Positions 3,198 through 46,679 of a stretch of 46,807 nt of DNA are shown here, one piece after another (the stretch's first letter is position 1; each line of letters starts with the position of its first letter). Location of the stretch: positions 1 to 46,807 of IMG/VR virus record IMGVR_UViG_3300013022_000001. One strand, given 5' to 3'. Source of the stretch: a virus. Position numbers and translations under genes: made by a program. The notes beneath the pieces were generated by a model. That model did no database searches, was not told the origin of the DNA, and was given only the letters and a program-made list of their open reading frames with translations.

Positions 3198-3210
3198 GAT
3201 TTAATTAAAT
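3198..3210. repeat. GATTTAATTAAAT element, copy 1 (exact)
   Basis: Forms the spacer between RBS aagagg and ATG 3209. Confidence 0.9.
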
Positions 3211-3307
3211 GGCACAGTCAAAACCGGCAGCACCAAAACCAAAACAGGGCGGCTCCGCAGTCAAACCAAATGGCAGCTCACGTTCTCCTGGTCGCGGTAA
3301 GCGCTGA
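3209..3307 (+). CDS. Small basic peptide, 32 aa (MAQSKPAAPKPKQGG...GRGKR)
   Basis: Good RBS aagagga 9 nt upstream. The stop TGA is 1 nt before the next ATG. Not in the ORF track because it is under 60 aa. Confidence 0.4.
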   Translation: MAQSKPAAPKPKQGGSAVKPNGSSRSPGRGKR

Positions 3308-3308
3308 T

Positions 3309-3803
3309 ATGGCAGCCAGCCTCGACATCATTGTGGCACTGATGTATTTAGGTGCTGTCATTTACACGCGGCGACTGGCGTTTGCCATGTTCCTTCCCGC
3401 GCTGTTTATGTCCGATGTCCTGGCTGGCGCAATCATTGATTACCTGACCAATACACCATCAAGCCCGGAGTTTATTTATTTCCTGGCGCAAAGCATGATT
3501 TGGCTTATTCCGCCTTTGCTTTTGCGTAAGTCGCCACAACTGGCGCTGTGTTCACTATCAATGTGTATTTATGAATGGCTCGTTGCGGTGGAGTCTTTTA
3601 CCTGGCAGTACATCACGCCTGTTGAAACTCCACTACACTCTGAGTATGCATTCTTAGTGGTCGCCATCCATCTCTTCAACCTTTCGTGCGCGACTAAATG
3701 GGGTGGCGAAATTGGACATATTAATTGGGGTCGCAGCACTGGCCTACGGGCTCTGGCAGATTTACAAGTGCTGGCGATACATCATCAGCGAGGTGAGAAA
3801 TGA
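3309..3803 (+). CDS. Multi-pass membrane protein, 164 aa
   Basis: In-frame ATG (M158) of ORF 2838..3803. The upstream part of that ORF is the antisense shadow of 2531-3097. Several hydrophobic helices. Confidence 0.65.
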   Translation: MAASLDIIVALMYLGAVIYTRRLAFAMFLPALFMSDVLAGAIIDYLTNTPSSPEFIYFLAQSMIWLIPPLLLRKSPQLALCSLSMCIYEWLVAVESFTWQYITPVETPLHSEYAFLVVAIHLFNLSCATKWGGEIGHINWGRSTGLRALADLQVLAIHHQRGEK

Positions 3804-4084
3804 ACGAAGGATTTCGACAGGCCGCAGAGCAGGTGATCAACGGAACGGCGGGCCAGATAATCGATAAGGCTGGCTACGCTTCTATTGGGACCGGTTTAGG
3901 ACTTAAGGCAGCCGAACAGGAAAAGATTATCACACAGGTGGCAGGCTTTATGGACCTTACTATAACTGAATGGGCAGCAGTAGCATCAATCGCTGGTGCC
4001 ATTTCACTTGTGGTGAAGAACATTTTCGAAATGTGGTGGAAAGCCCGTATGGAGAAGAAATATGGCCGCCCCAACGACCGATGA
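3800..4084 (+). CDS. Hypothetical protein with one TM segment, 94 aa
   Basis: ATGA start/stop overlap with the previous gene. RBS gaggtgag. Confidence 0.65.
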   Translation: MNEGFRQAAEQVINGTAGQIIDKAGYASIGTGLGLKAAEQEKIITQVAGFMDLTITEWAAVASIAGAISLVVKNIFEMWWKARMEKKYGRPNDR

Positions 4085-4460
4085 GTTAATTGCTGCGCTG
4101 GCATCGCGTGGCGTGTCATTCAGCCTGATTGAGGCCACTGGCATTCTGTGTCTACTGGATTCAATCACTGAATGCCTGGAGCTGAATTACCCTGGTGATG
4201 AGTGCCGACAGAGTGCAATCCTACTTTATGCAGCTTTGCTTCTTTCCACATCGACCTCAGGCCGCTATGTCACAAGTCAGTCAGCACCATCGGGTGCAAG
4301 CCAGTCATTCGCTTATGGCACCAAGCCATGGTCAACTCTCTACAACCAGATGCGCCTGCTTGACCCTGCGGGATGCGCGGGTGATTTGGTTGCTGACCCT
4401 AACGAGAGCGCCAAGCCATTCTTCAAGGTGGTTACTGGCTCACGGAGGTGCTTCAATTGA
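4062..4460 (+). CDS. Putative head-tail connector/adaptor protein, 132 aa
   Basis: Position in the head-tail joining block; overlaps its neighbours. The function is assigned from position only. Confidence 0.45.
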   Translation: MAAPTTDELIAALASRGVSFSLIEATGILCLLDSITECLELNYPGDECRQSAILLYAALLLSTSTSGRYVTSQSAPSGASQSFAYGTKPWSTLYNQMRLLDPAGCAGDLVADPNESAKPFFKVVTGSRRCFN

Positions 4461-4813
4461 CCTCGCTAGCTAATTGGAGTTATACACAGTCAGCTACCGT
4501 ATGGCATCGACAGGAGCCAGATGAGGATGACCCGATGGCGGTTGATGGTGGATTCTCTGCACCAGTAGCAATCATGTGCGACTATGGATTTAACGGCAAG
4601 GTCATTACCGACCAGTCAGGCAATGAAATCGTCGCCAAAGACACCTACTGGACTGAATACATCGGCATTAAAGAGCACGACTACATCGTCCTTGGTGTGT
4701 CTTCCGAGACTAACCCGCTGGATGCTGGCGCGCAGGAAGTGCTGAACGTGATTAACTATGGCAACGTGTTCGACCGCACCGAGCCGCCTGACTTTGCAAT
4801 TCTGACGGGGTAG
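4448..4813 (+). CDS. Putative head-tail joining protein, about 118-121 aa
   Basis: ORF track. The start is uncertain: GTG 4448 abuts GGAGG, while TTG 4457 has 8-nt spacing and a TTGA overlap with the upstream stop. Confidence 0.55.
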   Translation: MLQLTSLANWSYTQSATVWHRQEPDEDDPMAVDGGFSAPVAIMCDYGFNGKVITDQSGNEIVAKDTYWTEYIGIKEHDYIVLGVSSETNPLDAGAQEVLNVINYGNVFDRTEPPDFAILTG

Positions 4814-4815
4814 TG

Positions 4816-5214
4816 ATGGCTGGTAAACTGATGGGCCTGAAGCAGGCGCAGCAAAACCTGAATAAGATTGTCGATGAGATTTCTTCTCAGAAGATTGTGG
4901 CCGCGCTGACCAGTGCAAGCATCATCATTGCTACTGAAGCAGCCAGCATGACGCCTATTGACACCAGTACCCTGATTAACAGTCAGTACCGAGCCATTGA
5001 CGTGAATGGCACTCGTGTTACCGGTCGTATTGGCTACTCTGCCAATTACGCGCTGTACGTGCATAGCGCCAGCGGCAAGCTGAAAGGCCAGCCGCGTGCA
5101 AATGGTAATGGAGCGTATTGGGGTCCAAATGGTGAGAGCAAGTTCCTAGACAAGGCTGTCGAAAACACCAGGCAATCAGTTTACAGCGCAATAATGCGAG
5201 AGATGAAAATTTAA
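4816..5214 (+). CDS. HK97 gp10-like head-tail joining / tail completion protein
   Basis: ATG one codon inside ORF 4813..5214. Size, position and the motif GRIGYSANYALYVH resemble the gp10 family, from memory. Confidence 0.5.
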   Translation: MAGKLMGLKQAQQNLNKIVDEISSQKIVAALTSASIIIATEAASMTPIDTSTLINSQYRAIDVNGTRVTGRIGYSANYALYVHSASGKLKGQPRANGNGAYWGPNGESKFLDKAVENTRQSVYSAIMREMKI

Positions 5215-5702
5215 CCAGGATTCCAGAACTCTCCAAAAAGCTCCTTAGCCTTTTCGCAGTAAGCTTTGTGCGCCTCCTCTTTTGATGTGAACCTTCCGAT
5301 TTTCATTTTGATTCCATTTAATTTAATTTCTGCACGCCAGCGACCTGACCATGAGTCAAAGTGAACGCCTTTTACTCCAGATGTGTTTGACAGCCCCTTC
5401 TTTTTATTCATTTGGTTCTGGCTGATTGTTGCAGCGCGTAAATTGCAAATTCTGTTGTCACATCTATCTCCATTGATGTGATCTATAAATTCAGGTGGGT
5501 TTTCTTTGTAAAAAATGAACCACGCAACCCTGTGGGCAGGGACCCTGCGCTTGCCAAGAGTTATGTATCCAGAGTCTTTAATGTAGCTAGCTTTATCACC
5601 AGGCTTTACCTTTCCACAACCAATAAGCCAGAAAAAGTTACCTGTATCTGGCTCATATCTCAATCTTGATGATAGTCTTTTGTATTCGCATGCATTATTC
5701 AT
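5211..5702 (-). CDS. HNH homing endonuclease with C-terminal AP2 DNA-binding domain
   Basis: HNH_3-type motif DHINGDRCDNRICNLRAATISQN. AP2-like segment GVKGVHFDSWSGRWRAEIKLNGIKMKIGRFTSKEEAHKAY. Confidence 0.85.
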   Translation of the reverse strand: MNNACEYKRLSSRLRYEPDTGNFFWLIGCGKVKPGDKASYIKDSGYITLGKRRVPAHRVAWFIFYKENPPEFIDHINGDRCDNRICNLRAATISQNQMNKKKGLSNTSGVKGVHFDSWSGRWRAEIKLNGIKMKIGRFTSKEEAHKAYCEKAKELFGEFWNPG

Positions 5703-6007
5703 TTAATATTGATCCGCATTGATACTGGCGTTGAATCACAAACCTCCAGGATTGCATTGAGAGAAAAACCCAATGAAAATAGGTGTTTTAATATTTTCTC
5801 TATTGAAACACCTGATATCTGTCCGTTTTTTACTCTGCTTATTTCTGATTCTGAGCAGCCAAGTTTTGATGACCACTCCTTTTGGGTTAAGCCTGATCTT
5901 CTTAACCTATCAGTCAGCAGAATCACCAACTTGCTTTTAATGGCTGCAACTTCAGCATCTGGACCTTTGCCATAGATAACTTCGAATGGGTTTTTGACAG
6001 TATTCAT
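5699..6007 (-). CDS. XRE-family helix-turn-helix protein (HigA-antitoxin-like), 102 aa
   Basis: Motif GLTQKEWSSKLGCSESEISRVKNGQ. It overlaps the HNH gene by 4 nt. Confidence 0.7.
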   Translation of the reverse strand: MNTVKNPFEVIYGKGPDAEVAAIKSKLVILLTDRLRRSGLTQKEWSSKLGCSESEISRVKNGQISGVSIEKILKHLFSLGFSLNAILEVCDSTPVSMRINIK

Positions 6008-6034
6008 ATCACATCCTCATTTTTCAATTTGCAA

Positions 6035-18653: not shown

Positions 18654-19448
18654 ATGACCACTCTTTCTCAGAAGTACGCCAACAAAGATACCCGCGATGG
18701 TATCGCAGTAAACAAATCCTATCTTGCACCTTTTCATCAGTTCTTCCTTGAGCCCGGCTACAACATCCGTGAGGCCGATGAGCAGCATGTGGAGTATTTC
18801 GCACAATGCTGGGCTGAGGGAGCTCCACTCCCACCACTGACCGTTATCGTTAAAGATAATGGCCTGCTCATCGTTGATGGTCAGCATCGCTACTTGGGCG
18901 CTCAGAGAGCGATTGAGCGAGGTCATGATATTGCACGCATCGAATGCAAAGACTTTACCGGCTCCGAGGCTGACCGAGTGGCATTTATGGTCAGCAGCAG
19001 CCAGGGTAAAGCTCTGGATGCATTTGAGCGCGCTAATGCATATCGCCGTCTTAAGGCTTTTGGATGGACTAACGAAGAAATCGCAAAGAAAGTAGGCCGC
19101 TCAGTTTCTGATGTTCAGATGCACCTTTCACTCCAGGATGTGCCGCAGGAAATCAAAGAACGCATTAAGCTTGGTCAGATGAGCTATGCATCAGGTGTCG
19201 CTGTGACACGCGAGCATGGTGATAAAGCTGTTGAGGTTGTCGAAGAGGCGCATAAGGAAGCCAGGGCGGCTGGAAAGGATAAAATCACAGCCAAACAACT
19301 CAATAAGAAGCCAAAAAAAGAAGCGGACGTTCCGCGCATCATGGAACTGCTGAAGGGCGCAACTCAGGCCGCGTTTGGCAAAAACGATTATCTATGCCTG
19401 CAACCTGGTGTTATTGATGAACTGATGGAGCTAATCAATGGACGTTGA
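18654..19448 (+). CDS. ParB-like protein (ParB/Srx N-terminal domain plus HTH)
   Basis: Motifs LLIVDGQHRYLGAQRA and GWTNEEIAKKVGRSVSDVQMHLSL. Confidence 0.75.
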   Translation: MTTLSQKYANKDTRDGIAVNKSYLAPFHQFFLEPGYNIREADEQHVEYFAQCWAEGAPLPPLTVIVKDNGLLIVDGQHRYLGAQRAIERGHDIARIECKDFTGSEADRVAFMVSSSQGKALDAFERANAYRRLKAFGWTNEEIAKKVGRSVSDVQMHLSLQDVPQEIKERIKLGQMSYASGVAVTREHGDKAVEVVEEAHKEARAAGKDKITAKQLNKKPKKEADVPRIMELLKGATQAAFGKNDYLCLQPGVIDELMELINGR

Positions 19449-19689: not shown

Positions 19690-19702
19690 GATTTAATTAA
19701 AA
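19690..19702. repeat. GATTTAATTAAAa element, copy 2 (12/13)
   Basis: Its TTAATTAA core overlaps the ssb stop codon. Confidence 0.8.
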
Positions 19703-20119
19703 AGGTATTGAATCATCGAATCCATTATTTTGCTGTACCTGTTGCTCCTTCTGTGCCTGCTGGCCGCGTTGCTGCTGGTTTGGTTGCTGACCGGCCTGTG
19801 AATGAGCGAATACAAGGCGCGGCTGCACTAATTCCAGAGTGATGTAATTTGTGCCATTATGCTCGCGCTGATTAACCTGCAATGTATCGCATGTGAAGCT
19901 GGCACATCCATCCTTAACAAGCACCTGGTCGTAATACTGAATGGCAGCAGGGGAGCTGCCAAAGACAGTGGCCCTATAGTTAGTGTACTGCCGCTGGCCA
20001 TCTTTATCTTTCCAGCTCTCTGACAGTTCCACAGCGTACATCTTCCACTCACCCTTAGCAGAACTGCCGGTCTTTGTGTAAACGTCTTTGCGAATCTGGC
20101 CGGTAATTGTATGTGGCAT
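19697..20119 (-). CDS. ssb: Single-stranded DNA-binding protein
   Basis: OB-fold-sized N-terminus, Gln-rich linker and canonical acidic tip DDSIPF. Confidence 0.9.
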   Translation of the reverse strand: MPHTITGQIRKDVYTKTGSSAKGEWKMYAVELSESWKDKDGQRQYTNYRATVFGSSPAAIQYYDQVLVKDGCASFTCDTLQVNQREHNGTNYITLELVQPRLVFAHSQAGQQPNQQQRGQQAQKEQQVQQNNGFDDSIPF

Positions 20120-20132
20120 AATTTTCTCTCTA

Positions 20133-20792
20133 TTAAAATTCGTTAATCTGCTGCGGCTCTACTTTTTGCTTATCTTCTGTGCGATCAGAAGCAAGTGATT
20201 CCGGCTTTGTTATCTTCGCAGGGTTGAATGATTCGCCAGAGGTTGAAAGTTTTGCTTTCATTTCCTGATATGCGCCAGTTACAACACGAATTGCCGCATC
20301 ATCACCCTGATAGGTTTTGTATTCTTCTGCGTAAACCTTTTTCAGCTCATCAAAGCTTTCACACAGGCGAATGGCTGCTGCTGCATCTTTTGGCGACTTG
20401 CGGGCAGCATTGCCATCATCATCTGCCTGCGCGATACCAAACATAGCTGCGATAGAGTAACGGCGCGCATAAGTCATCGCAGAGCCATATCCCTGTGCAT
20501 CTTTCTTGGCAACTGGCATTGGCATGACTGAAGACATATATTCTCCTGACTCATGCATGATAGTAGTTTCCAGCTTTAGTGTGTCGTTAGAATCACTGTC
20601 AACTGCGTTCTGGATGATTATAAGGCCATTCGACTCAAGTGCTGGCCTGATTGCATTCAGGAATGATTCCAGATTTGCATAGTTACTTTTAAGGTGTGGG
20701 TTGCTGGCGTTTTTCTTTGCCGCGCTGCTCATCACCTTTCTTGCTTCAACCAGAGATTTAATTAAATTTGCTTTCTGTTCTGAGAAAATCAT
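20133..20792 (-). CDS. erf: Erf-family single-strand annealing protein, 219 aa
   Basis: Inner ATG (MIFSEQ). Erf-like core NPHLKSNYANLESFLNAIRPALESNGL. Confidence 0.8.
   Translation of the reverse strand: MIFSEQKANLIKSLVEARKVMSSAAKKNASNPHLKSNYANLESFLNAIRPALESNGLIIIQNAVDSDSNDTLKLETTIMHESGEYMSSVMPMPVAKKDAQGYGSAMTYARRYSIAAMFGIAQADDDGNAARKSPKDAAAAIRLCESFDELKKVYAEEYKTYQGDDAAIRVVTGAYQEMKAKLSTSGESFNPAKITKPESLASDRTEDKQKVEPQQINEF
20755..20767. repeat. GATTTAATTAAAT element, copy 3 (exact), inside erf
   Basis: Read as N-L-I-K-S on the minus strand. It shares the 17-mer AGATTTAATTAAATTTG with copy 5. Confidence 0.9.
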
Positions 20793-20799
20793 AATTGCC

Positions 20800-21735
20800 T
20801 CACGCGAATTGTTTTTTGTACCACTCAGGCGTATCCATGCTGATGCGTGGACTTCCCATACCATAAGAAGGCCATGAATCAGTCTTTTTGCACGCGGCAT
20901 AAAGAGTTAGTGCGCCGCGCAACTGAATGCGACCAATGTTCAACTGCTCTTGTGTCAGTTCAAATAATTGAGGAATGTATGGTGATTTCTTCTCCTGAAC
21001 TAATAATGAAACAGCTTTTGGTGGTCGGCCATATGCTTCCATGAACATGTCATGCTGCATGGCCATTTTCATAAAATAACCAAGTCGAACGGCGTGACGA
21101 AAGAATTCATCAGGCTTTGCAGTCACTGCTGTTTTGTAATCAATAATCTCCTCATCTTTTGTAAGGCAGTCAAAGCGAACCTTGGCATTAAAACCCTCTA
21201 GCTCGCCAAGGATAGAGACCTCACTGTAAGCACCATTCAACAGATTTGCATAATATGGATTAGCATGAATAACCGCACGCATCTGCATGATGGCATCGTA
21301 ATCTGCCGCCTCCAGGATGGTGCGTCCTTTTGCATTAGCCTCAACCAGCAGGCGCTCAACATCATAGATTTTTGCTGCCGGGTCTGCTGCCTGAACAATG
21401 GCAATCACTTCATGCTTAGCTTTGCCAGACAACCCCTTGATGCCGCGCTCTTTAGCCCATGAGTTCATATCGGCCACTGTTACCAGCAGGTCAGGGCCAA
21501 ATTCTTCTTTTGAGGGCATGCGCACAAACTGCGCATCAAACTTCTCTGGTTCAAGCAGCGCCGTGTGCGAACCGGTGCCGAAGATAAGCGCCTTACTTTG
21601 CTCATCCTCTTCATCCTTGTATCGCCATGCTGCCGGGCATTTATCGTAAATGTGCCACAAGCCAGAACCATTGATGTGATCAGTGTCTGCATGGTATTGC
21701 TCATTGCTCAATTCATTATTTAAATAAACTTTCAT
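20800..21735 (-). CDS. PD-(D/E)xK exonuclease (RecE / DUF3799-like)
   Basis: N-terminal LSNEQYHADTDHINGSGL and the D...D-Y-K motif FDCLTKDEEIIDYKT. It pairs with erf. Confidence 0.75.
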   Translation of the reverse strand: MKVYLNNELSNEQYHADTDHINGSGLWHIYDKCPAAWRYKDEEDEQSKALIFGTGSHTALLEPEKFDAQFVRMPSKEEFGPDLLVTVADMNSWAKERGIKGLSGKAKHEVIAIVQAADPAAKIYDVERLLVEANAKGRTILEAADYDAIMQMRAVIHANPYYANLLNGAYSEVSILGELEGFNAKVRFDCLTKDEEIIDYKTAVTAKPDEFFRHAVRLGYFMKMAMQHDMFMEAYGRPPKAVSLLVQEKKSPYIPQLFELTQEQLNIGRIQLRGALTLYAACKKTDSWPSYGMGSPRISMDTPEWYKKQFA

Positions 21736-21761
21736 GTCACCACCTTTTGTCGTAGATAAGT

Positions 21762-21790
21762 AATCTACTCCATTAACCCGAAGTAGTAAA
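21762..21790 (-). promoter_or_regulatory. Internal promoter TTTACT-17-TAGATT for exo-erf-ssb
   Basis: The reverse complement reads tttact acttcgggttaatggag tagatt. It overlaps the VRR-NUC stop codon. A TGTCGTAGAT box at 21748-21757 lies on the opposite strand. Confidence 0.45.
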
Positions 21791-22181
21791 GCGTTGCTTT
21801 CTTCAGTTCATCAATGCCATATGCAATCCCTGCAAACCCACCAGACTTGACGACATGTTCGCCAAATTTCCATTGGTTAGCGCTTACCTTACACTTTGTT
21901 TTATCTCGCCTTTTAAGTTCTATTGTTCCATATGGCCAGGCAATACCGCGATGTAAAATGATGTTGTCATGAACGCCGCTTTTTACGCCCATCTTCTGAC
22001 GCTTAATAATCAACTGCACGCCGGATTTAGTGCTGGTTTCGTTTGGAACATGGAAGAAATTAACTTCCGGGAATCGGTACTCCATCCATAGCCCGTATGC
22101 CATCTGGTCAATTTCTTCTTTAGGACATGGCCCGCGATAACCACTATCAAAAACATAAATTCCGCTATCAAGCTGCTTCAA
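21765..22181 (-). CDS. VRR-NUC domain nuclease
   Basis: PD-(D/E)xK pattern GVHDNIIL ... GTIELKRRDKTKCKVSANQ. Confidence 0.65.
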   Translation of the reverse strand: MKQLDSGIYVFDSGYRGPCPKEEIDQMAYGLWMEYRFPEVNFFHVPNETSTKSGVQLIIKRQKMGVKSGVHDNIILHRGIAWPYGTIELKRRDKTKCKVSANQWKFGEHVVKSGGFAGIAYGIDELKKATLYYFGLME

Positions 22182-24081
22182 TTTGCTCTCCTGAAAAGTC
22201 CTTTCTGTGAATTATATCCCGACCCTTATCGTTAAATCGGTGCGTTATGCGCCTTGGGGAGCGGATTACAGCAGAAAAAGCCATGAATTGCTTTGCTGTC
22301 GGGCAGTTCATCATGGATTTAATTAAATTGCGGTCAGCCAGATGAGGAATGAGTGCCTTCATCTTGAACTGGTCTTTCAGGTATTTTTCCTTTCGGCCAA
22401 ACGGATAGAAAACCTCATGCGCCCAGCCAATTTTCCCGTTGGCTTTCTCAACCAGATAACTGTAAACAACGCCTTCCTCGTTTTTAGTTAGCTCAATTTT
22501 GAAATCGAGCACATCTGTCCATTCCCGGTCGGTGTAAACTCGCTCATCAAGATTGGCATTTGGGTCGCGAAGCACATGGTCACAATGGCGGCAGTAACGT
22601 GCGCATGGGTCATTCTTCGTTCCGCATCCATCGAATATTTTTACGCCGTGCTTATCAAACCCGCACAGCAGATAGCTGAAAAACTCTTCGCAGCGCCCAT
22701 CAGGTGACAATTTATCTTCACCAACACAGCGTCGCGCATATGCGCTATTCATGGTATTGCATTTAGGGCATGGCACCTCCTCCCCTGAACGCTTTGAACG
22801 CTGCAACTCAGCTTCTTCCAGAATAGGGTCGTCATAAAGCGCGCCTAGCTCAAACATGGTGCCAGTGAAGTCCAGAACAAGGTGATCTTCTTTAACCAGA
22901 CCTTCTTCAACCTGTTCTGACTTCAGTAGCCGCATTCCACGACCCAGCAGCTGAACCAGCAGCGTCAGTGACATTATCTTCCGAAGAATCACCGATGTAT
23001 CCCATAATGGGATGTTAACTCCTGTAGTAAGGCACCCAATCTGCAAGACGTATTTTATTTTCCCGGTGTAGGCATCCTTCAGCGCTTTGCGCCGCATCTT
23101 CGGTCCCATATCATCCGTCACGATTGCATAGCTGCCTTCAGGAAGATATTTGGCTGCCTCTTTACAGTGCTTCTTACCAGCACAGGTAATCAATACGCCA
23201 TTTCGGTTTCGCGTTAGGTCCATTACCTTGAGCATGATTTTCTGCGTCAGCGTACCCTGCTTAATGATTTCTTCCTGCATGGCTTTAAGCTGCGATTCTG
23301 TGTAATCCTGCGCGCCATCTTCACCATTGCTTTCAAAATCATGCAGGTCATATTTAAGGTCTTCGATGTCCGGCACGCCGAAAATTGTCGGCACCAGAAA
23401 TCCAAGATCAACAAGATATTTGGTATCGATATTGACGATCTCACCACCAGACCAGAACGGCCCTTTGATTGACGTTGTTCCCCTGAATGGCGAGCCAGTG
23501 TATCCAAAAATACGCAAATCATGACCGAATTTAGCTTTGCAGCGCCTCATAAGTTCATTAATGATAATTCCGTACTGTGTAGATGGCTGTTCACTGACAA
23601 CATCCTCCCAGTCAACCTGATGGCATTCATCAACAAGCAGGAATCGCGCCACGAAGTCACCAAGCGCAGCAGCCTTTTCTTCGTTGTTGAATAGCGCGTT
23701 AATCACTGTCCCTTCACTGCCAACAATGACAGGGTAAGCTGTGCTTTTTCTTCCCAGCGAGGCGCTGAAAAGGCTGTTCTTAACGTTTAGATTCCATAGT
23801 TCCTCAGCATCCTGGTCGATGATTTCACCCTGGCGTGCGATGATCATGCCTTCATATCCCATCTGACTGAAGCGCGCAGCTACCATGGCAATCATGATTG
23901 TCTTTCCAGCGCCTACAGAGGCAGTGATAAAGGCTGGCCCATTGTAGTTGCGAATAGCATTACCGGTCATGGCATAGCAAAGCCACTGATACGGCCTAGG
24001 GTCAATCTTTCCCGTATCAACAGCATTCCTGAGCGCCACCATGTCGAGCTGAGCAATCTGCTCATCAATTTTGTGTTTCAC
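22168..24081 (-). CDS. SF2 (DEAH) helicase with C-terminal zinc-ribbon region
   Basis: Walker A ASVGAGKT and DEAH box LLVDECHQ. Cys clusters CPKCN...ARRC and CARYCRHCDH. GTG start. Confidence 0.85.
   Translation of the reverse strand: MKHKIDEQIAQLDMVALRNAVDTGKIDPRPYQWLCYAMTGNAIRNYNGPAFITASVGAGKTIMIAMVAARFSQMGYEGMIIARQGEIIDQDAEELWNLNVKNSLFSASLGRKSTAYPVIVGSEGTVINALFNNEEKAAALGDFVARFLLVDECHQVDWEDVVSEQPSTQYGIIINELMRRCKAKFGHDLRIFGYTGSPFRGTTSIKGPFWSGGEIVNIDTKYLVDLGFLVPTIFGVPDIEDLKYDLHDFESNGEDGAQDYTESQLKAMQEEIIKQGTLTQKIMLKVMDLTRNRNGVLITCAGKKHCKEAAKYLPEGSYAIVTDDMGPKMRRKALKDAYTGKIKYVLQIGCLTTGVNIPLWDTSVILRKIMSLTLLVQLLGRGMRLLKSEQVEEGLVKEDHLVLDFTGTMFELGALYDDPILEEAELQRSKRSGEEVPCPKCNTMNSAYARRCVGEDKLSPDGRCEEFFSYLLCGFDKHGVKIFDGCGTKNDPCARYCRHCDHVLRDPNANLDERVYTDREWTDVLDFKIELTKNEEGVVYSYLVEKANGKIGWAHEVFYPFGRKEKYLKDQFKMKALIPHLADRNLIKSMMNCPTAKQFMAFSAVIRSPRRITHRFNDKGRDIIHRKDFSGEQIEAA
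22316..22328. repeat. GATTTAATTAAAT element, copy 4 (exact), inside the helicase gene
   Basis: Read as N-L-I-K-S on the minus strand. Confidence 0.9.
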
Positions 24082-24099
24082 ATCATTAGTCCTTTGTTG

Positions 24100-24141
24100 T
24101 TGTCGTAGATTGATGGTAATCTTAACTTATATCTACGTCAA
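24100..24141. promoter_or_regulatory. Overlapping face-to-face promoters framed by 11-bp inverted repeats TTGtCGTAGAT / ATCTACGTCAA
   Basis: Plus strand: TTGTCG-17-TAACTT, towards primase. Minus strand: TTGACG-17-TACCAT, towards helicase. Confidence 0.5.
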
Positions 24142-24156
24142 TACTGGATTTAAAAT

Positions 24157-25110
24157 ATGAACCGATACGACTGGAACGACATACAACCAAGGATGGTGGG
24201 TAACTGGCAGGGAGCACTGCTTTCGCTGGTTGACATCGACAGCAAAGCATTTAACGGCAAGCATCAGCCATGCCCGCACTGCAATGGCAAGGACCGTTAC
24301 CGCTTCACGGATGAGTGCGGTGAAAAAGGTGATGGTGGCGCGGTGTGCAATCAGTGTGGTGGTGGCGATGGCATGAGATGGCTTATGAAGCTGTCAGGCA
24401 GGTCATTCGGTGAGTGCGTGACAATGATTGCTCAATATCTCAATCTTACGCCACCAGAGCGCCTGGAAGTTATCAAAAAGGAAATGCCCAAGATTGGCTG
24501 TATAGATGCAATGACTCCTGCTCAGGTGCACTCAATGATGTCTAAAGCGCACGCTGTTGACTGTTGCTCATGGCAGAGAGTGGAAGGTATTGGCGGGCAC
24601 TTTAACATCGCCAATGGCAAAAGTGGCGATCTTGTGGCTGTTGAATGCCTTATACCTTCATCCCTTCCACAAAAGGGAGAGGGCTTTTCAGGTAATGCCT
24701 GTAACGTAGGATTCATCGACATTAATAATAAATGTCGATTCGCGTCTGGTATAACTGACATCATGATCAACGGGCGCATAACGCCGGGAATGGTTTCACC
24801 GGTAGGCGATGCCGCTGGCGCGTCAGTTTATCTCGTCGCGGATTACGCCGATGCCTGGCATGCGCACTATCTGACCGGCGCGCAAATATGGTGCTGCTGG
24901 TCAGTTGAGAATATGTGGGAAGTGGCGCGGCTCTTCCCGTCCCACGAAGGAAGAATTAAGGCTATAGTAAATCGCAATGAATATGAATTGTTTGGCGCTG
25001 ATAACGCAGACTTGCAGGTACTGGTGCCGCAGGATTCACAAACGATAAAAGGCGCGAAAGCGATTGAGCGAATATTGTGGAAAGCCGATGACTTACTGGC
25101 TGTGATGTAA
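24157..25110 (+). CDS. DNA primase (zinc-ribbon type)
   Basis: Primase Zn-ribbon signature HQPCPHCNGKDRYRF...GGAVCNQCGGGDGMRWLM. Confidence 0.75.
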   Translation: MNRYDWNDIQPRMVGNWQGALLSLVDIDSKAFNGKHQPCPHCNGKDRYRFTDECGEKGDGGAVCNQCGGGDGMRWLMKLSGRSFGECVTMIAQYLNLTPPERLEVIKKEMPKIGCIDAMTPAQVHSMMSKAHAVDCCSWQRVEGIGGHFNIANGKSGDLVAVECLIPSSLPQKGEGFSGNACNVGFIDINNKCRFASGITDIMINGRITPGMVSPVGDAAGASVYLVADYADAWHAHYLTGAQIWCCWSVENMWEVARLFPSHEGRIKAIVNRNEYELFGADNADLQVLVPQDSQTIKGAKAIERILWKADDLLAVM

Positions 25111-25115
25111 AATAA

Positions 25116-25135: not shown

Positions 25136-25140
25136 ATTCT

Positions 25141-27200: not shown

Positions 27201-27460
27201 TTTTCACCCTTGTAAATGACGAGAACACCGGATTCCATTTTTTTTGTTCTGACCATGACTTTAAGTGAGTAGCAGGTGCCTCTTATCCTTGCTGAAATCT
27301 GCCTTGCCGTAAGGCCTTCGCGTAATGGGTAAATGAATGATTCTCCAGGAATCATGACGGAAAACTGGTTGCGCAATTCATTCGTCATGCCGCATGTGCT
27401 CTTTGTTTTCCGCTCAGAAACGAGATTTCTCGTCTGCGCCACGCTTAACTTTTCAAACAT
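27197..27460 (-). CDS. Hypothetical basic protein, 87 aa, first gene next to the origin-like region
   Basis: Inner ATG of ORF 27197..27565, preceded by aaggagg. ATGA overlap with the next gene. Confidence 0.6.
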   Translation of the reverse strand: MFEKLSVAQTRNLVSERKTKSTCGMTNELRNQFSVMIPGESFIYPLREGLTARQISARIRGTCYSLKVMVRTKKMESGVLVIYKGEK

Positions 27461-27519
27461 GTATTCCTCCTTATCTTTACCCATACTAACCCATCCTTTA
27501 TCTCTCTGAAAACAGTTTT

Positions 27520-27830
27520 TTCGCATTGGGGTGCGGGGTGAGGCAGGGGTTTTGGCTAACCCCACGTTATGTATATGATTTTAATATTAAAAATGATATT
27601 GGGGTAAATGGGGTGGGTTTCTTAATAATATTATCATTTTTCTTTCGTAAAAATTTGGCACCCGTAATTTTGTTTTTCTTTTTTATATTAATAGTAAAAT
27701 TACAATATAACCCCCCCCATTACCCCATATATATACTATGTTATTGTAATTATTATACTTATTAGCAAAAAAATTGGGGTGGATAGACTATACCCAGCAC
27801 CCACCCCACACACCCAAAGTTACCCCGCCC
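27520..27830. other. Putative origin of replication: inverted GGGGT/ACCCC iterons flanking an AT-rich core
   Basis: GGGGT at 27528, 27535, 27546, 27601, 27610 and 27776. ACCCC at 27559, 27722, 27803 and 27822. C8 run at 27711-27718. AT-rich core at about 27615-27775. No credible ORF. Confidence 0.5.
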
Positions 27831-28371: not shown

Positions 28372-28542
28372 ATGTCAGTTTATAAAAATTCAGACCTGGA
28401 AGCAGAGCGTGGATTCGTTGGTTCACAAAACGAATTGCAGAGACTGACTGACCGACATTTGCAACATGGCGGAAAGGTGGTGCGTGACATCAAATTTAAC
28501 GCATCTGGAAAGCGCTACATTGAACGCATAAAATTATCCTAG
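28372..28542 (+). CDS. Hypothetical protein, 56 aa
   Basis: It fills the gap between neighbouring genes. Weak RBS ggggtgag. Not in the ORF track. Confidence 0.45.
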   Translation: MSVYKNSDLEAERGFVGSQNELQRLTDRHLQHGGKVVRDIKFNASGKRYIERIKLS

Positions 28543-28555: not shown

Positions 28556-28756
28556 ATGGTCATAAAACGCCGCACAATCGCTGCCAGCTCGTTACGTGAG
28601 GGCATGCTGGTTGATTTCGAAGATGGAGAACCAGCAATCGCATCAAATGTAAGGCATCTGCTCCACAAGGTTTCATTCGATGCTCGTGGTGACAGCTTCT
28701 CGGTTGATAAAGATGAGCAGCTTGTCACAGTACTTATGATGCGCGTGGTGGGGTGA
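28556..28756 (+). CDS. Hypothetical protein, 66 aa
   Basis: RBS agaggtggg; ORF track. Confidence 0.6.
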   Translation: MVIKRRTIAASSLREGMLVDFEDGEPAIASNVRHLLHKVSFDARGDSFSVDKDEQLVTVLMMRVVG

Positions 28757-28759: not shown

Positions 28760-29134
28760 ATGTTAGGTACAGATGCAGTACGCAGAATTGAGCGCATGAA
28801 CGCCATGATGGAGCGCGAGCGCAAAGAACACGAAGGTAAATTGCCTTCATGCCCTCGCAAATCTGGACAGTGGGGAAGTCATCCAAACAATACCGGCCTT
28901 GCCGGTATAACTGAGGTGAATAAAAGATTCAGGGCTGTAATTTACAGCCCTGAATTCCCCAGAAGCGGTAAGTATCTTGGACTGTTCGAAAACATTCACA
29001 GCGCAGTAGATATTATTTGCAGAACTGCTAAAATAAAACCTCTCGACATTGCAGGCATGACTGCTGATGGATGGGAGAAGATTAAGCAGCAGCCAATCAT
29101 TAAAAATAAACGTTATGGGGTGAGAAATGGTTAA
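28760..29134 (+). CDS. Hypothetical protein with a possible AP2-like DNA-binding segment, 124 aa
   Basis: GITEVNKRFRAVIYSPEFPRSGKYLGLFENIHSAVD resembles the AP2 fold pattern. Weak, from memory. Confidence 0.55.
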   Translation: MLGTDAVRRIERMNAMMERERKEHEGKLPSCPRKSGQWGSHPNNTGLAGITEVNKRFRAVIYSPEFPRSGKYLGLFENIHSAVDIICRTAKIKPLDIAGMTADGWEKIKQQPIIKNKRYGVRNG

Positions 29135-31687: not shown

Positions 31688-33098
31688 GCGTCTGTCCGCC
31701 ATCGCCATCGAAAAGCTTGAGCAGGCCATTGGCGATGCTGCCAATGATGGCGCTACGAGCGCTGTGTTCGGCATTTGCAACATGCAGAAGGAGGTTGTGC
31801 GCAAGTTGCGCATGACGGCGGACGGTGTGACTGATGTGAGCAATGAGGATTGCGATGCTGACCACCTGATTCCTGAGCGGCTTGAAAAGCTGCTTTACCC
31901 CAAGAGATTTAAATTTATTTTCGGCGGGCGCGGTTCGGGCAAGACGCGCACAATCACCACCATCATTACCGAGCGCGCAAGGTTTCGTCCTGACCGTATC
32001 GCATGCTTTCGTGAAATACAACAGTCCATTGAGGACAGCTCTTACCAGGAACTGGTAGACGAGATAAACCGCAAGGGTGAACTAAAAGAGTTCCGCGTTA
32101 TCAACAACGAAATTACGCACAAGAACACAAAGGCCAAGTTCCGTTTTAAGGGTCTGTACCGTAATCAGACAACCGTGAAGGGATTTGCCGGTATCACGCT
32201 AGGGTGGGTCGAGGAAGCAGAGAACGTCAGCCAGGTGAGTTGGGACATTCTTGAGCCAACGATTCGCGCGGCCAACTCCGAGCTGTGGTGCTCTTTCAAC
32301 CCCAATAAAGAAACTGACCCGACCTGGTCCAACTGGATTGAGCCTTATCGCAGCCGGATGGTCAATGGCATCTACGAAGATGGTGAGATGCTCATCATTG
32401 AGTGTAACTACAGCGATAATCCGTGGTTCAGTGACACTCCGCTTCCGGCGTCAATGGAGCGCATGAAGTCCACTGACTACGACCGCTACCTCTGGATATG
32501 GGAGGGCAAATTCAATAAGCGCAGTGATGAGCAGGTGTTCGGCGGGAAGTGGCGCACGGACACATTCGAGCCACAGTCGCACTGGCACGGGCCATACTAT
32601 GGCATGGATTTCGGTTTCAGCCAGGACCCTACAGCTATGGTCGAAACATGGATTGAGGAGCTGCCATGCGAACGCCGGAAGGTTTACGTGCGACGCGAGT
32701 ATGGAAAGGTTGGCCTGGAGATTACAGACACGCCAACAGCGATGGTACAGTCATTCCCGGAGGCCAAGAAGCACAGATGGCATGGCGACTCATCTCGTCC
32801 CGAAATGATTAGCCACATCCGAAGGCAGGGCTTTGATATTCATCCGTGTAACAAATGGCCCGGCAGCGTCGAAGAGGGAGTAATGTGGCTGCGCGGTTGC
32901 GATGAGATTGTGATTCATGATGATTGCAAGCAGGTGAAGGAAGAGATGATGAATTACAGCTACAAGGTAGATAAGCTTACTGGCAATGTGCTAACTGATA
33001 TCGTTGATAAGTGGAACCACTTTATGGATGCACTTCGATATAGCCTCAATCAACACATCGTCCAACGTGGTGCGGGATGGATTCGCCGCAAGCGCTAG
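31677..33098 (+). CDS. terL: Terminase large subunit
   Basis: Walker A FGGRGSGKTR. Length and overall pattern fit PBSX-type large terminases. Confidence 0.9.
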   Translation: MPRKRLSAIAIEKLEQAIGDAANDGATSAVFGICNMQKEVVRKLRMTADGVTDVSNEDCDADHLIPERLEKLLYPKRFKFIFGGRGSGKTRTITTIITERARFRPDRIACFREIQQSIEDSSYQELVDEINRKGELKEFRVINNEITHKNTKAKFRFKGLYRNQTTVKGFAGITLGWVEEAENVSQVSWDILEPTIRAANSELWCSFNPNKETDPTWSNWIEPYRSRMVNGIYEDGEMLIIECNYSDNPWFSDTPLPASMERMKSTDYDRYLWIWEGKFNKRSDEQVFGGKWRTDTFEPQSHWHGPYYGMDFGFSQDPTAMVETWIEELPCERRKVYVRREYGKVGLEITDTPTAMVQSFPEAKKHRWHGDSSRPEMISHIRRQGFDIHPCNKWPGSVEEGVMWLRGCDEIVIHDDCKQVKEEMMNYSYKVDKLTGNVLTDIVDKWNHFMDALRYSLNQHIVQRGAGWIRRKR

Positions 33099-33598
33099 CA
33101 CTTATGGCCCATGGAGCGAAGTTTAGCGCACTGCTTTCTCACTGACTCAGTTGCGCGGCCAAGCTCTAAACCAATTTGCTTTTGGGTTGCGCCCTTGCTA
33201 CGCATATCAATAAGCCTGTCGTTATCACCATCGGTCCATTTATGATTAAGCACTGACAGGCTGATGCCATGACGCCTGGCGCGCTCCCTGACCGATGACT
33301 CAGCCATGCCCAGTATATCGCTCAATTCCCATAGCGGCTTAATACCCGCGTTTTTTATCAGGATGCGACGAATTGATTTGGTCTTGCTGATTGACTTCTT
33401 CTTAGCGGGCCAACGTTTCAGGTGATGGTCATGGTTGCGCTGCTTTATTGCATCTTTATTCTGCTCGCGATATGCATCCTTTGATGATTTTTCGCATGCC
33501 TTGCAGTAGCTGCGCAGGCCATCTTTGCGGCGACTGTCTTTGGTGAACTGCTCAGCGGGTTTTGATGATTCGCACCTGCTGCACTTCTTATCGCACAT
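33095..33598 (-). CDS. Zinc-ribbon plus double HTH DNA-binding protein (candidate regulator or nuclease-less homing-endonuclease relic), 167 aa
   Basis: CSRC...CKAC N-terminus typical of phage endonuclease DNA-binding modules. HTH-like LGMAESSVRERARRHG and ATQKQIGLELGRATESVRKQ. Confidence 0.6.
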   Translation of the reverse strand: MCDKKCSRCESSKPAEQFTKDSRRKDGLRSYCKACEKSSKDAYREQNKDAIKQRNHDHHLKRWPAKKKSISKTKSIRRILIKNAGIKPLWELSDILGMAESSVRERARRHGISLSVLNHKWTDGDNDRLIDMRSKGATQKQIGLELGRATESVRKQCAKLRSMGHKC

Positions 33599-33624
33599 AA
33601 CCACCTCACATTTAATTTAATCTA

Positions 33625-38764: not shown

Positions 38765-39199
38765 ATGAAGATTTCACAGAATGGCATCGACCTTATTAAG
38801 CAGTTTGAGGGCGTGAGCCTTAAGGCATACCCAGACCCAGGCACGGGCGGTGAGCCGTGGACCATTGGCTACGGCCACACTGGTGGCGTGAAGAAAGGCG
38901 AAGTAATCACGCAGTCCCAAGCCGAAGATTTGCTGCGCAAAGATTTAATTAAATTTGAAGCTGGAGTGAGCAATGCTCTGACCGTGGAGACCACCCAAAA
39001 CCAGTTCGATGCGATGGTGTCACTGGCTTTCAATATCGGCCTCGGCAATTTCACCAAATCAACACTGCTGCGCAAGCATAATGCCAAATGCTGGCAGTGC
39101 GCTGCAGCTCAGTTTGGCGTGTGGCGCAATGCAGGCGGCAAGGTGATGAATGGCCTTATTCGCCGTCGCGCAGCCGAACGTTATCTGTATATGTCATGA
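38765..39199 (+). CDS. Endolysin, GH24 (T4-lysozyme-like) family
   Basis: IKQFEGVSLKAYPDPGTGGEPWTIGYGHT catalytic-region signature. Confidence 0.9.
   Translation: MKISQNGIDLIKQFEGVSLKAYPDPGTGGEPWTIGYGHTGGVKKGEVITQSQAEDLLRKDLIKFEAGVSNALTVETTQNQFDAMVSLAFNIGLGNFTKSTLLRKHNAKCWQCAAAQFGVWRNAGGKVMNGLIRRRAAERYLYMS
38942..38954. repeat. GATTTAATTAAAT element, copy 5 (exact), inside the endolysin gene
   Basis: Read as D-L-I-K-F on the plus strand. Confidence 0.9.
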
Positions 39200-40294: not shown

Positions 40295-40654
40295 TTAATC
40301 TTCCTCAATTTTTGAATATGCAGCAAGCAATGTGAGTGATGAGATTAGCATGAAAGTGCCAAGCACGAAGTGGCCTAGTGCATAAACGGCCGCTAGCTCA
40401 GCAATTACTGTCAGCACATGGTATTTGCGATGAATCCAGATCCTCGACTTAATTGGATTTCCGTCTTTTTTTATCCTGAACTTGTCGCTGCTAATGATGG
40501 CGCAGGCCGCCATAAATGTGAGTGCTGAGTTAACCCAGAAGAAAGCCAGCGCCAGGTTGTAGACATAATCCATCTGGAGATAAAGGCCGAAATAAATCAG
40601 CGGCCATACAATAACTACGTCCTGCACCACGTTACGGATAAATCTCCACATCAT
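40295..40654 (-). CDS. Multi-pass membrane protein, 119 aa
   Basis: 3-4 hydrophobic helices; ATGA overlap with the upstream gene. Confidence 0.65.
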   Translation of the reverse strand: MMWRFIRNVVQDVVIVWPLIYFGLYLQMDYVYNLALAFFWVNSALTFMAACAIISSDKFRIKKDGNPIKSRIWIHRKYHVLTVIAELAAVYALGHFVLGTFMLISSLTLLAAYSKIEED

Positions 40655-40986
40655 TTTCTCTCCAGTTCAATTGCGCGCTTGGCGCTTTCTAGGATTTCAT
40701 TCAAGTCCTGCTCGCGGTCTTTGTGTCCACGGAGTCCAGCACACAACGCCTTTTTAATTAAATGTTGCAGTGCGGGGTTCGTGACTTCAAAAGCCTGCAA
40801 AACATCGTAGACGTCGATTGTGACACCTTTGCATGGGCGGTTGTATTTGCCTGAGCGTAAATTAATCACAGAATCACTGGATATAATATCTGACTTTGAC
40901 TCATAGCGATTCACGACACCACAAACATCGCATTTAAATACTACGGGTCCTGGCTCAGGTCCGTAAACTGGCGTGTCACATGCCAT
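40651..40986 (-). CDS. Zn-ribbon / DUF3310-like protein, 111 aa
   Basis: FKCDVCG near the N-terminus. IDVYDVLQAFEV...LIKKALCAGLRGHKDREQDL resembles DUF3310, from memory. Confidence 0.55.
   Translation of the reverse strand: MACDTPVYGPEPGPVVFKCDVCGVVNRYESKSDIISSDSVINLRSGKYNRPCKGVTIDVYDVLQAFEVTNPALQHLIKKALCAGLRGHKDREQDLNEILESAKRAIELERK
40751..40763. repeat. ttTTTAATTAAAT element, copy 6 (11/13), inside 40651-40986
   Basis: Read as H-L-I-K-K on the minus strand. Confidence 0.75.
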
Positions 40987-41186
40987 CACTCACCTCTCAA
41001 AGTAACTTTATTCTCACCATCCACATCAAAATTCTGGCGGATGAAGTCATACATCTCTTCTCGCGTCCATTCCTTCATTCCAACGTAGCAGGCCGCATAC
41101 TGGCGCACGCCACGCAGCGTAATAGGTTGGCGTTCCGTCACAATTTTTGTCAGCGCATCAATCGGCTCACTTCTTTTCTTTCCCAT
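40986..41186 (-). CDS. Hypothetical protein, 66 aa
   Basis: RBS gagaggga; ORF track. Confidence 0.6.
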   Translation of the reverse strand: MGKKRSEPIDALTKIVTERQPITLRGVRQYAACYVGMKEWTREEMYDFIRQNFDVDGENKVTLRGE

Positions 41187-45097: not shown

Positions 45098-45558
45098 TGG
45101 CTATTCGTTACGGCTCCATCAAAGGCGGTCCAGCCCGCAAGAATGACCCACAGGTGCAGGAAGCCATCATGGCTGTTGCTGTTCAACCTGGCACACTGGT
45201 TCACTTAAACGGTTCAGGTCAGTTTGTCGCAGCGACTACCGCTGGCGCATATGACTGGCCACTGCTGTTGCAGGAAAACTACATCGGCGGCATGGAAGTG
45301 TCAGAAGCAGTTCCTGCTGGCGCAACCGGTGTTGCTCTGATGTGCGAATTCGGCGTGACTTACCATGCCCTGGTAGCGGCATCATCTGCACTGGTGAAAA
45401 ACACCCCGCTGTCAAAGAATGCTGCTGGCATTCTGAAAGTAGCAGCAGCAGGTGAGCAGGTTCTGTTCTTTGCTCACGAAGCCTATACCGTTTCATCCAC
45501 TGGTCCAGAGCTGGTAGCTGTACGCCGCGCTGGTAACGCAGAATTAGCGAGCGCATAA
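45097..45558 (+). CDS. Head decoration/cement-like protein, 153 aa
   Basis: Ala/Gly/Val-rich beta protein directly before the major capsid gene. DUF2190-like, from memory. Confidence 0.45.
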
Positions 45559-45560
45559 AT

Positions 45561-46634
45561 ATGACAATCATGAAAGCAGTGTTTAGCAAGCCGCTGATTG
45601 CCAACTCTAAAGTAGTTGCAGGTCAGTGGAAGGCGCTTGGTATTGACCGCCAGGTATTCGCAAACAAAGAGCAGGCGCTGAGCGCCGAGTATCAGACCAA
45701 CGCAACCGCGCTGATTACTCGCGACTTCTGGCGTGAAGTTGATAACGTCACTACCCGTGTATTCCGCAACGAAGCGGGCATGGACATGATGAATGACCTG
45801 ATGGGTCTGGCTGCAAACATCGACATCGGTAAGACTGTGGCTATCAGCCGCATTGCTTCTGATGCCGGTCGCGTAGTTCGCACCATCTCCGGTCAGGTGC
45901 CAGAGGATTTGGATAAAACTCGCTACGATTACAGCGGCGATGTGATTCCAATCTTCAAGTCAGGCTATGGCCGTAACTGGCGTGAAGTTGAAGGCATGCG
46001 CTCAGAAGGTTTCGACCCGTTCCTGGATGACCAGGCAAACATTTCGTTTGCGCTGCGGCAGGACATGGCTCAGTACCTGCTGACTGGCGATACTTCACTG
46101 AACGTGAATGGCGTGTATACCGGTTACGGTATCACCAACCATCCAAACACAGTGCAGATTGACCTGTCTGGCATTGACCTGCAAGTTGCGACACCTGATG
46201 AGATTGTAGCGTTCTTCAACTCGACGATTGCAGCATTATTTGATGCGCAGAACGTGTTTGAACCTGTTGATGTTTGGGTTTCTCCTTCAATTCGTCGCTC
46301 ACTGAGCCGCCCATATTCTGACTCTCAGGGCTTCAAGGCGGGCACTATTGAAGATTACGTGCTGAGCTTTGGTCGCACTGGCAACGTTGGCCGCATCGGT
46401 AAGATTGGCACCAACTACCTGCTGACCGGTAACCAGTTCGTTGCTTATGTTCGCAATGACCTGTACATTCGTCCGCGTGTTGGTCAGCCAGTGTCTACCT
46501 ATGCTGAGCCGCGCACTACTCCTCATGCCGATTTCAACTTCCTGGTATGGGGCGCTATGGGCTTGCAAATCCGTAAGGATTACAATGGCCGTAGTAAAGT
46601 CTTCCACGGTTATGGAAACCAGGCACCACTGTGA
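45561..46634 (+). CDS. Major capsid protein, 357 aa
   Basis: Size, position after the scaffold and decoration genes, and the attenuator hairpin that follows it. Confidence 0.75.
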   Translation: MTIMKAVFSKPLIANSKVVAGQWKALGIDRQVFANKEQALSAEYQTNATALITRDFWREVDNVTTRVFRNEAGMDMMNDLMGLAANIDIGKTVAISRIASDAGRVVRTISGQVPEDLDKTRYDYSGDVIPIFKSGYGRNWREVEGMRSEGFDPFLDDQANISFALRQDMAQYLLTGDTSLNVNGVYTGYGITNHPNTVQIDLSGIDLQVATPDEIVAFFNSTIAALFDAQNVFEPVDVWVSPSIRRSLSRPYSDSQGFKAGTIEDYVLSFGRTGNVGRIGKIGTNYLLTGNQFVAYVRNDLYIRPRVGQPVSTYAEPRTTPHADFNFLVWGAMGLQIRKDYNGRSKVFHGYGNQAPL

Positions 46635-46639
46635 TGATT

Positions 46640-46659
46640 GGGGCTACGGCCCCTTTCTT
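46640..46659 (+). terminator. Weak terminator/attenuator after the capsid gene
   Basis: ggggc tacg gcccc followed by tttctt. Confidence 0.4.
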
Positions 46660-46666
46660 AACTGGA

Positions 46667-46679
46667 GATTTAATTAAAT
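46667..46679. repeat. GATTTAATTAAAT element, copy 7 (exact)
   Basis: Forms the spacer between GGAG and ATG 46678. Confidence 0.9.

Follow-up and report, generated by a model that had tools for sequence, protein, structure and literature searches.

The viral record IMGVR_UViG_3300013022_000001, analysed here over its whole stretch of 46,807 nucleotides (the window), raises the question of why one 13-bp word, GATTTAATTAAAT, recurs in unrelated genes and in ribosome-binding spacers, and of what might read it. The word itself is very probably under selection at the nucleotide level and appears to be a dispersed cis-element. This conclusion follows from the comparison of orthologous codons, from the codon usage of L-I-K tripeptides and from a codon-shuffle control, three lines of evidence that strongly support the proposal of a first-pass annotation that selection acts on the DNA rather than on the protein.

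Copies of the word in the genome

Five exact copies of GATTTAATTAAAT were found, starting at 3198, 20755, 22316, 38942 and 46667 and always with the G on the + strand, against 0.01 expected; none of 100 dinucleotide shuffles reached five. Two near copies, at 19690 (12/13) and 40751 (11/13), both retain the 10-bp core TTTAATTAAA, which has seven occurrences in the window, and read on opposite strands they have the 15-mer ATTTAATTAAAAAGG in common. The 17-mer AGATTTAATTAAATTTG is common to 20754-20770 and 38941-38957. The first-pass annotation had reported the same five exact positions, the same two near copies and the same shared 17-mer, and had called for shuffled controls; both the dinucleotide shuffles and the codon shuffles described below fall far below the observed counts. 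The invariant core of the word is the 12-bp palindrome ATTTAATTAAAT, which has nine matches in the window with at most one mismatch where 0.27 are expected, and at its fullest the word is a palindrome of 14 bp, GATTTAATTAAATC. Among all 10-13-mers of the genome the word is the most over-represented. Moreover, the PacI site TTAATTAA is present seven times in the genome against 0.82 expected, all seven inside the word family. Restriction-site avoidance was rejected as an explanation, as TTAATTAA is not depleted and is instead enriched about 9-fold.

The copies are given below, together with the leader open reading frame (ORF) that starts at the first of them (SD, Shine-Dalgarno sequence).

3198..3210, + strand: copy 1, exact and ancestral, in the SD-to-ATG spacer of a 32-aa leader ORF
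3209..3307, + strand: 32-aa basic leader ORF (MAQSKPAAPKPKQGG...GRGKR), present in all clade members and called by the ENA gene caller
19690..19702, + strand: near copy (12/13) at the stop codon of ssb, which lies on the - strand
20755..20767, + strand: exact copy in erf (Erf by Pfam; gene on the - strand), codons 9-13, N-L-I-K-S
22316..22328, + strand: exact copy in the SF2 helicase gene (Pfam ResIII and Helicase_C; gene on the - strand), N-L-I-K-S
38942..38954, + strand: exact copy in the endolysin gene (Pfam Phage_lysozyme), codons 60-63, D-L-I-K
40751..40763, + strand: near copy (11/12 of the palindrome) in gene 40651-40989 on the - strand, H-L-I-K-K
46667..46679, + strand: exact copy in the SD-to-ATG spacer of a small gene 3' of the major capsid gene

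The window begins and ends with a 123-nt direct repeat (46685-46807 is identical to 1-123) and is therefore a circular (or permuted) assembly of a complete phage genome of 46,684 bp. In ENA the window is the metagenome contig ERZ27245344 k141_102916. Its relatives are T1-like/Skatevirus-like siphoviruses of Salmonella, E. coli and Klebsiella, with only about 72% nucleotide identity over short stretches. The comparison set consisted of about 200 related loci and two complete GenBank genomes, and four relatives were assembled from the loci: A (complete), B (96%; IMGVR_UViG_3300031372_000009), C (75%) and D (84%). Members of the clade are contained in ERZ27245344, SRR6956846, SRR22560134 and the JACCDR/JACCDQ assemblies.

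Selection at the codon level

The palindrome leaves a single open frame, which reads x-L-I-K-x on either strand, and all the coding copies use that frame. The genome encodes L-I-K eight times and uses TTA ATT AAA for four of these tripeptides, where 3% would be expected. When the codons were shuffled 3000 times with the proteins and the per-gene codon usage fixed, 0.027 exact coding copies were expected and no shuffle had more than one, against three observed; the core 10-mers in coding sequence number four, against 0.15 expected.

The first-pass annotation had suggested aligning the orthologous genes, and at five loci (erf, helicase, endolysin, 40651-40989 and ssb) the relatives were found to encode the same or similar peptides with other codons. 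The true start of erf is at 20792. In this gene the spelling AAT CTG ATT AAG GCT, for N-L-I-K-A, is found in about 30 relatives, and only the window and A have AAT TTA ATT AAA TCT. The helicase copy lies about 50 codons ahead of the stop; relatives have N-L-I-D-N (AAT CTA ATT GAT AAC) at this place, and in the window and A the peptide is N-L-I-K-S, with two amino acids altered. In the endolysin gene the D-V-A/E-K of relatives (GAC GTA GCG AAA) has become GAT TTA ATT AAA in the window and in B, not in A. Gene 40651-40989, for which the label DUF3310-like could not be confirmed since there was no Pfam hit, has CAC CTG ATT AAG AAA in all relatives and CAT TTA ATT AAA AAG in the window alone, four synonymous changes that reach the best match that the peptide permits. 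At the end of ssb, A has CCT TTC TGA TTAAAC and the window CCT TTT TAA TTAAATC; a synonymous change in a Phe codon, a switch of stop codon and a 1-nt insertion all go toward the motif. The name ssb, carried over from the first-pass annotation, rests on the C-terminal ...DDSIPF tail, and Pfam gave no hit.

The two copies in SD-to-ATG spacers (3198 and 46667), which had been predicted for the ATGs at 3209 and 46678 and were recovered when the gene contexts were derived again, are the two most conserved and have an identical 10-nt spacing. Copy 1 lies directly downstream of a conserved extended -10 promoter (TGaTACAAT) and is kept in A, B, C, D, L033, L039 and L040 although the flanking SD bases vary. 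The spacer reads GGAGATTTAAACATG in the motif-free Skatevirus ortholog and G(G)AGATTTAATTAAATG in the clade. This copy is intergenic, as the upstream part (two-fifths) of ORF 2838-3803 is spurious. The motif contributes its last two bases to the ATG of the leader ORF, which a G completes. The leader peptide, MAQSKPAAPKPKQGGSAVKPNGSSRSPGRGKR, is very basic and is conserved as far as Skatevirus, and the stop of the ORF sits 1 nt before the ATG (3309) of the gene for a protein with several transmembrane segments (3309-3803), a gap that suggests translational coupling. The copy at 46667 is found downstream of a terminator-like hairpin, ahead of a gene called by the ENA gene caller; here the window, A and B have GGAGATTTAATTAAATG and C and D have GAGGATTGGATAATG in the same place.

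The lineage has altered synonymous codons, amino acids, one stop codon and spacer bases, always toward the word. In unrelated genes as well as in ribosome-binding spacers the word arose independently, each time as close to a full match as the protein or the start codon permits.

Distribution among related phages

Exact copies number five in the window, four in A, four in B, one in C, one in D and none in Skatevirus PQ465216 and BUCT541. The genome of PQ465216, which is complete, has no copy even with one mismatch and no TTAATTAA at all. The multi-copy sub-clade thus carries four or five exact copies per genome and the other relatives none or one, rarely two, as in L111. Since C and D hold copy 1 only, this copy is considered ancestral and the rest were added in the lineage of the window, A and B. 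In B the erf/exo/helicase/primase module was replaced, yet a new copy is present in another gene, and the B-like relative L348 (Ga0209464_10000032) has a further new copy in an intergenic region at 2929.

In some Klebsiella-type relatives just one exact copy is present, in the region of the endolysin gene that encodes the N-terminus (K-N-L-I-K-S-H-E-G). The copy is unchanged across about ten haplotypes and the downstream synonymous sites vary; however, this is only suggestive because the whole 5' end of the gene is conserved. When the whole contig collection was scanned for GATTTAATTAAATG, the matches listed included single chance matches in AT-rich contigs.

Some further features of these relatives may be mentioned. 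The module swap in B (L043 10800-13900, against window 19697-27565) is wholesale: Erf, the PDDEXK exonuclease, the SF2 helicase, the primase and the second helicase are all replaced, by genes that we label putatively dUTPase-, HNH-, Gam- and RecT-like from their translations. ParB, on the flank, has been kept, and so has an SSB of the same type. B also has three palindromes with one mismatch within 1.2 kb (L043 11251, 11826 and 12408), found at the same relative positions in D (L046). They surround the dUTPase/HNH/ssb genes downstream of parB; of the three, one overlaps the L-L-I-K-stop that terminates the gene upstream of ssb. The copy at 2929 in L348 lies exactly where homology with B starts. 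It is the only case of a copy at a mosaic junction, the others lying elsewhere.

A candidate reader of the site

Four proteins had been put forward in the first-pass annotation as possible readers of the word: an AP2-like protein, a ParB-like protein, an HNH-AP2 endonuclease and a Zn-ribbon/helix-turn-helix (HTH) protein. Only the first has a distribution that matches the expansion of the motif.

28760..29134, + strand: candidate reader, 124 aa, with an AP2-like core at residues 43-90

Its gene is the last of a conserved cassette of three (DUF7540, 28372-28542; a 66-aa ORF, 28556-28756; and 28760-29134), which in the close relative L351 is adjoined by NinB and NinG. Among 5.8 billion proteins and the IMG/VR and JGI contigs, the protein was found only in window-like contigs, A, B, L348 and L351. 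A direct Pfam search gave no match to AP2 (PF00847). When the family profile was compared by hhalign with AP2 domains taken from phage HNH-AP2 enzymes, the hallmark positions aligned (E 1.7e-4, probability 50%), and the profile matched P0012 exactly where Pfam places AP2. The orthologs in B, L348 and L351 are 55-71% identical, and all retain TGG GAT TTA ATT AAA T within the gene, the site being kept at synonymous positions; in L348 and L351 it is the full 14-bp palindrome GATTTAATTAAATC.

From these sequence comparisons we tentatively propose that one clade of T1-like phages actively accumulates a cis-acting palindromic site of 12-14 bp, that this site is the target of a symmetric protein and that the AP2-like protein is the reader. 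As a whole this explanation is plausible, though we would not put it at even chances. Because the core has perfect two-fold symmetry, the reader is most likely a symmetric (dimeric), sequence-specific protein that recognises the site in double-stranded DNA. The AP2-like protein is the best candidate for this role by a circumstantial link, namely that its arrival would coincide with the passage from one ancestral copy to four or five exact copies. The presence of the site in the genes of three diverged orthologs also suggests that it could regulate its own gene. Speculatively, the bound protein might act as an operator or roadblock at the two translation-initiation regions, in the early helicase-exo-erf-ssb operon and in the lysis gene, and so tune expression during infection.

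Several observations weigh against this proposal. The association between the AP2-like protein and the motif amounts essentially to one evolutionary co-occurrence. C and D retain copy 1 without an AP2-like gene, L111 (two copies) and the Klebsiella-type relatives (one copy) have no detectable AP2-like gene, and the window-type AP2-like gene itself lacks the internal site. Although the motif is identical, the window-type and the B-type proteins have considerably different residues in the beta-strands predicted to contact DNA. Moreover, the AlphaFold model of the protein (predicted local distance difference test, pLDDT, 54) was too poor for a fold search. Scans for promoters and terminators gave no consistent relation between these and the site positions; only copy 1 adjoins a promoter and the others lie within ORFs or after a terminator, which is not the arrangement of operators at promoters. 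Finally, nine of nine independent exact sites have the flanking G on the + strand, which is also that of parB, whether they are in + genes, - genes or intergenic regions, a coherence that a simple symmetric dimer does not predict.

In a bolder form of the same idea, the clade would have gained a small AP2-family protein and then recoded essential parts of its genome (the recombinase, helicase and lysin genes, the end of the SSB gene and ribosome-binding spacers) to plant the 14-bp site chromosome-wide and in a strand-coherent manner. This stronger statement we consider rather unlikely. Such a planted-site system may serve temporal control, chromosome organisation or strand-specific processing.

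Relation to known dispersed elements

Among known phenomena, the nick motifs of the T5/tf type and the palindromes of Cluster O mycobacteriophages come nearest. The latter are 17-bp palindromic repeats, TGTTCGGNNNCCGAACA, in more than 30 copies, mostly off promoters and predicted to be the target of a dimeric protein, and the ParB-like gene of these phages was judged unrelated to them (PMC4351075). The window shares with Cluster O the dispersed sites with dyad symmetry, apparently non-temperate phages and a location mostly away from promoters. The sequence, length and copy number are different, and the creation of sites inside genes at the codon level was not reported there.

The stoperators of Cluster A mycobacteriophages are asymmetric 13-bp sites, oriented with transcription, that belong to the repressor system of temperate phages, the bound protein blocking transcription. 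As in the window, these 13-bp sites are scattered in transcribed regions and near start and stop codons, and their mode of action is the one proposed above for the AP2-like protein (stoperators are also mentioned in PMC4351075). In contrast, the sites of the window are palindromic and the orientation of their flank follows the genome, being the same in + and - genes.

The start-associated sequences of Cluster K mycobacteriophages, a conserved 13-bp word over the SD-to-start region of a subset of genes, are comparable with copy 1 and the copy at 46667, which overlap this region; more than half of the copies in the window, unlike them, are inside ORFs far from starts.

Alternative explanations

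A first alternative is that the word is a strand-specific nick site as in T5, tf and Rembedalsseter, where a phage nickase would read the 13-mer G+ATTTAATTAAAT and cut one strand. The nick motifs of the Pseudomonas phages tf (TACTRTGMC) and Rembedalsseter (WACTRTGAC), and also those of T5, are restricted to a clade, with about nine copies against 0.7 outside it and on one strand, and the nicks were physically demonstrated (PMC11780129, PMC3517423). The likeness is considerable: in both cases a short word is dispersed in one clade of lytic phages, inside and outside genes, with copies that face the same way on one strand (in the window, to judge from the flanking G), and the enrichment in the window, A and B is confined to the clade as it is for WACTRTGAC (PMC11780129). 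The strand coherence of the G described above would suit such a site, and the genome encodes an HNH_3-AP2 enzyme. The HNH_3 Pfam family includes the nickase I-HmuI. However, the known nick motifs are asymmetric, and the core of the word is an AT-only perfect palindrome, present in only four to seven copies. Its symmetry puts 12 of the 13 positions of the site (14 of 14 in L348 and L351, where the two sites are fully symmetric) on the other strand as well, with the risk of a double-strand break. Local constraints (the ATG, or an Asn or Phe residue that is conserved) explain the strand coherence in part, and after allowing for these forced flanks it is no more than suggestive. In addition, the mobile HNH-AP2 gene has its nearest relatives in phages without the motif and lacks an ortholog in both A and B. 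For these reasons a nick site seems improbable.

Secondly, the sites could bind a nucleoid-associated or other protein of the host of this clade, and the phage would gain by recruiting it. This would account for the single conserved copies in relatives without the AP2-like gene, and for copy 1 in C and D. A host switch could equally yield an expansion specific to one lineage, and the relatives from Salmonella, E. coli and Klebsiella do have other receptor-binding domains. On the other hand, a literature search found the word unreported in bacteria or phages and present only in engineered PacI/stop cassettes, and we know of no host factor with such a site. The site inside the AP2-like gene of three diverged orthologs would also be left unexplained, and we hold the involvement of a host protein to be a small chance.

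A function of the RNA, as an AU-rich initiation spacer or enhancer or as a site for an endoribonuclease of the RNase E type (RAUUW), is suggested by the position of the two most conserved copies, both of them in SD-to-ATG spacers with 10-nt spacing, where the ancestral sequence was already AT-rich, and by the purine that precedes every copy in the mRNA sense. However, an RNA element needs no perfect 12-nt palindrome, a stable hairpin is impossible here, and three exact copies are deep in ORFs, far from starts, yet clearly selected. A role in the RNA is thus quite improbable.

The parS/ParB, Noc-NBS and KorB-OB systems use palindromes of 12-16 bp in several dispersed copies, tolerated in coding sequence via codon choice. 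By analogy, the word could be a parS-like site for the ParB/KorB-like protein (18654-19448), which would load on the DNA, spread or bridge it. This protein is a genuine ParB of the Spo0J/Noc/KorB type, with the N-terminal domain and the HTH (Pfam being among the bases for this). The word, like parS, is a perfect 12-bp palindrome in five exact and two near copies, dispersed and tolerated in ORFs, one near copy lying 240 bp downstream of parB, and it has ATTT...AAAT arms, which resemble Noc NBS and P1 boxA. However, the recognition helix GRSVSDVQMHLSL of the HTH is identical in 61 of 61 distinct orthologs, including the one of the complete motif-free Skatevirus genome, and so does not co-vary with the motif. 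ParB is therefore an unlikely reader and was rejected as such; the membership of the word among parS-like systems is not supported and the idea is largely refuted. No other recurrent palindrome was found in the roughly 200 related loci that might serve the relatives as co-varying ParB sites, and their widely shared single-copy palindromes are merely conserved sequence. We therefore regard a parS-like role as very improbable. A different sequence, ATCTACGTCA, co-varies better with the invariant ParB.

Chance, composition or common descent without function is hardly credible, for although AT-rich spacers and the common endolysin peptide G-x-(D/N)-L-I-K favour partial matches, it is excluded by the dinucleotide shuffles, the codon shuffles and at least seven independent gains by directed substitutions.

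Other candidate readers and further sequence elements

The HNH-AP2 (HNH_3-AP2) protein at 5211-5702 belongs to a group of 114 paralog matches, which lie at scattered positions; its closest relatives are in motif-free phages, and it has no sequence similarity to the AP2-like protein. Being mobile, not specific to the clade and without an ortholog in A or B, it was rejected both as reader and as nickase. The Zn-ribbon/HTH protein (33095-33604) was discarded since the multi-copy relative B has no convincing ortholog, with only a 32% match and none of more than half-length coverage. The HTH_37 protein (5699-6007) is present in the window only and was likewise discarded. The word does not seem to be the target of a homing endonuclease either, as the HNH genes are not consistently next to the sites and the motif-rich genome carries both.

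The structural operon contains an antisense insertion (5211-6007, - strand) that consists of the HNH_3-AP2 homing-endonuclease gene and the HTH_37 gene. HNH-AP2 paralogs are many in these phages and their positions vary; in A a different one lies immediately upstream (114 bp) of the copy 1 site (L034 13294-13758). A 13-mer related to the word, CATTTAATTTAAT (on the other strand ATTAAATTAAATG), has two copies, at 5315-5327 and 33609-33621. The first encodes E-I-K-L-N-G within the AP2 domain of the HNH gene and the second is found just ahead of the SD of the Zn-ribbon/HTH gene. The resemblance is probably a coincidence between AT-rich sequences.

The sequence ATCTACGTCA mentioned above was found 13 times in the window with at most one mismatch, against 1.4 expected.

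3123, 8769, 18325, 18612, 21748, 24101, 24131, 27875, 31014, 33643, 33659, 33696 and 41219: ATCTACGTCA sites, 12 of the 13 oriented with the downstream gene

These sites are always in intergenic promoter regions, a few nt 3' of -10-like hexamers and upstream of the SD. In Skatevirus, which lacks the palindromic word, the sequence has been kept in the region that separates the leader-ORF operon from the anti-restriction/KorB operon. It probably represents a promoter-proximal operator or an initial-transcribed element of this phage group. Being conserved in all these phages, it appears to be a better candidate than the word for the target of the invariant ParB/KorB-like protein.

The E. coli Chi site (GCTGGTGG) is absent from both strands of the window, and to our knowledge no Chi sequence resembles the word; a Chi-like role was therefore rejected. 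GATC is about 5-fold under-represented in the whole window (37 sites, 182 expected).

Significance

Dispersed short words have been known in lytic phages for decades, mostly without a reader or a function. The word described here is unusually tractable, being long, invariant and rare, and its stepwise gain can be traced gene by gene, across sequenced relatives, including the amino acids sacrificed for it in conserved proteins. Moreover, each copy is a PacI site, and a digest can reveal its presence, modification or nicking. If the bolder form of the proposal holds, the AP2-like protein would be the first functional AP2 regulator in a phage that is not an endonuclease and that has a defined regulon. 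Confirmation of this protein as the reader would mean that the gain of one DNA-binding protein can reshape codon choice across a viral genome.

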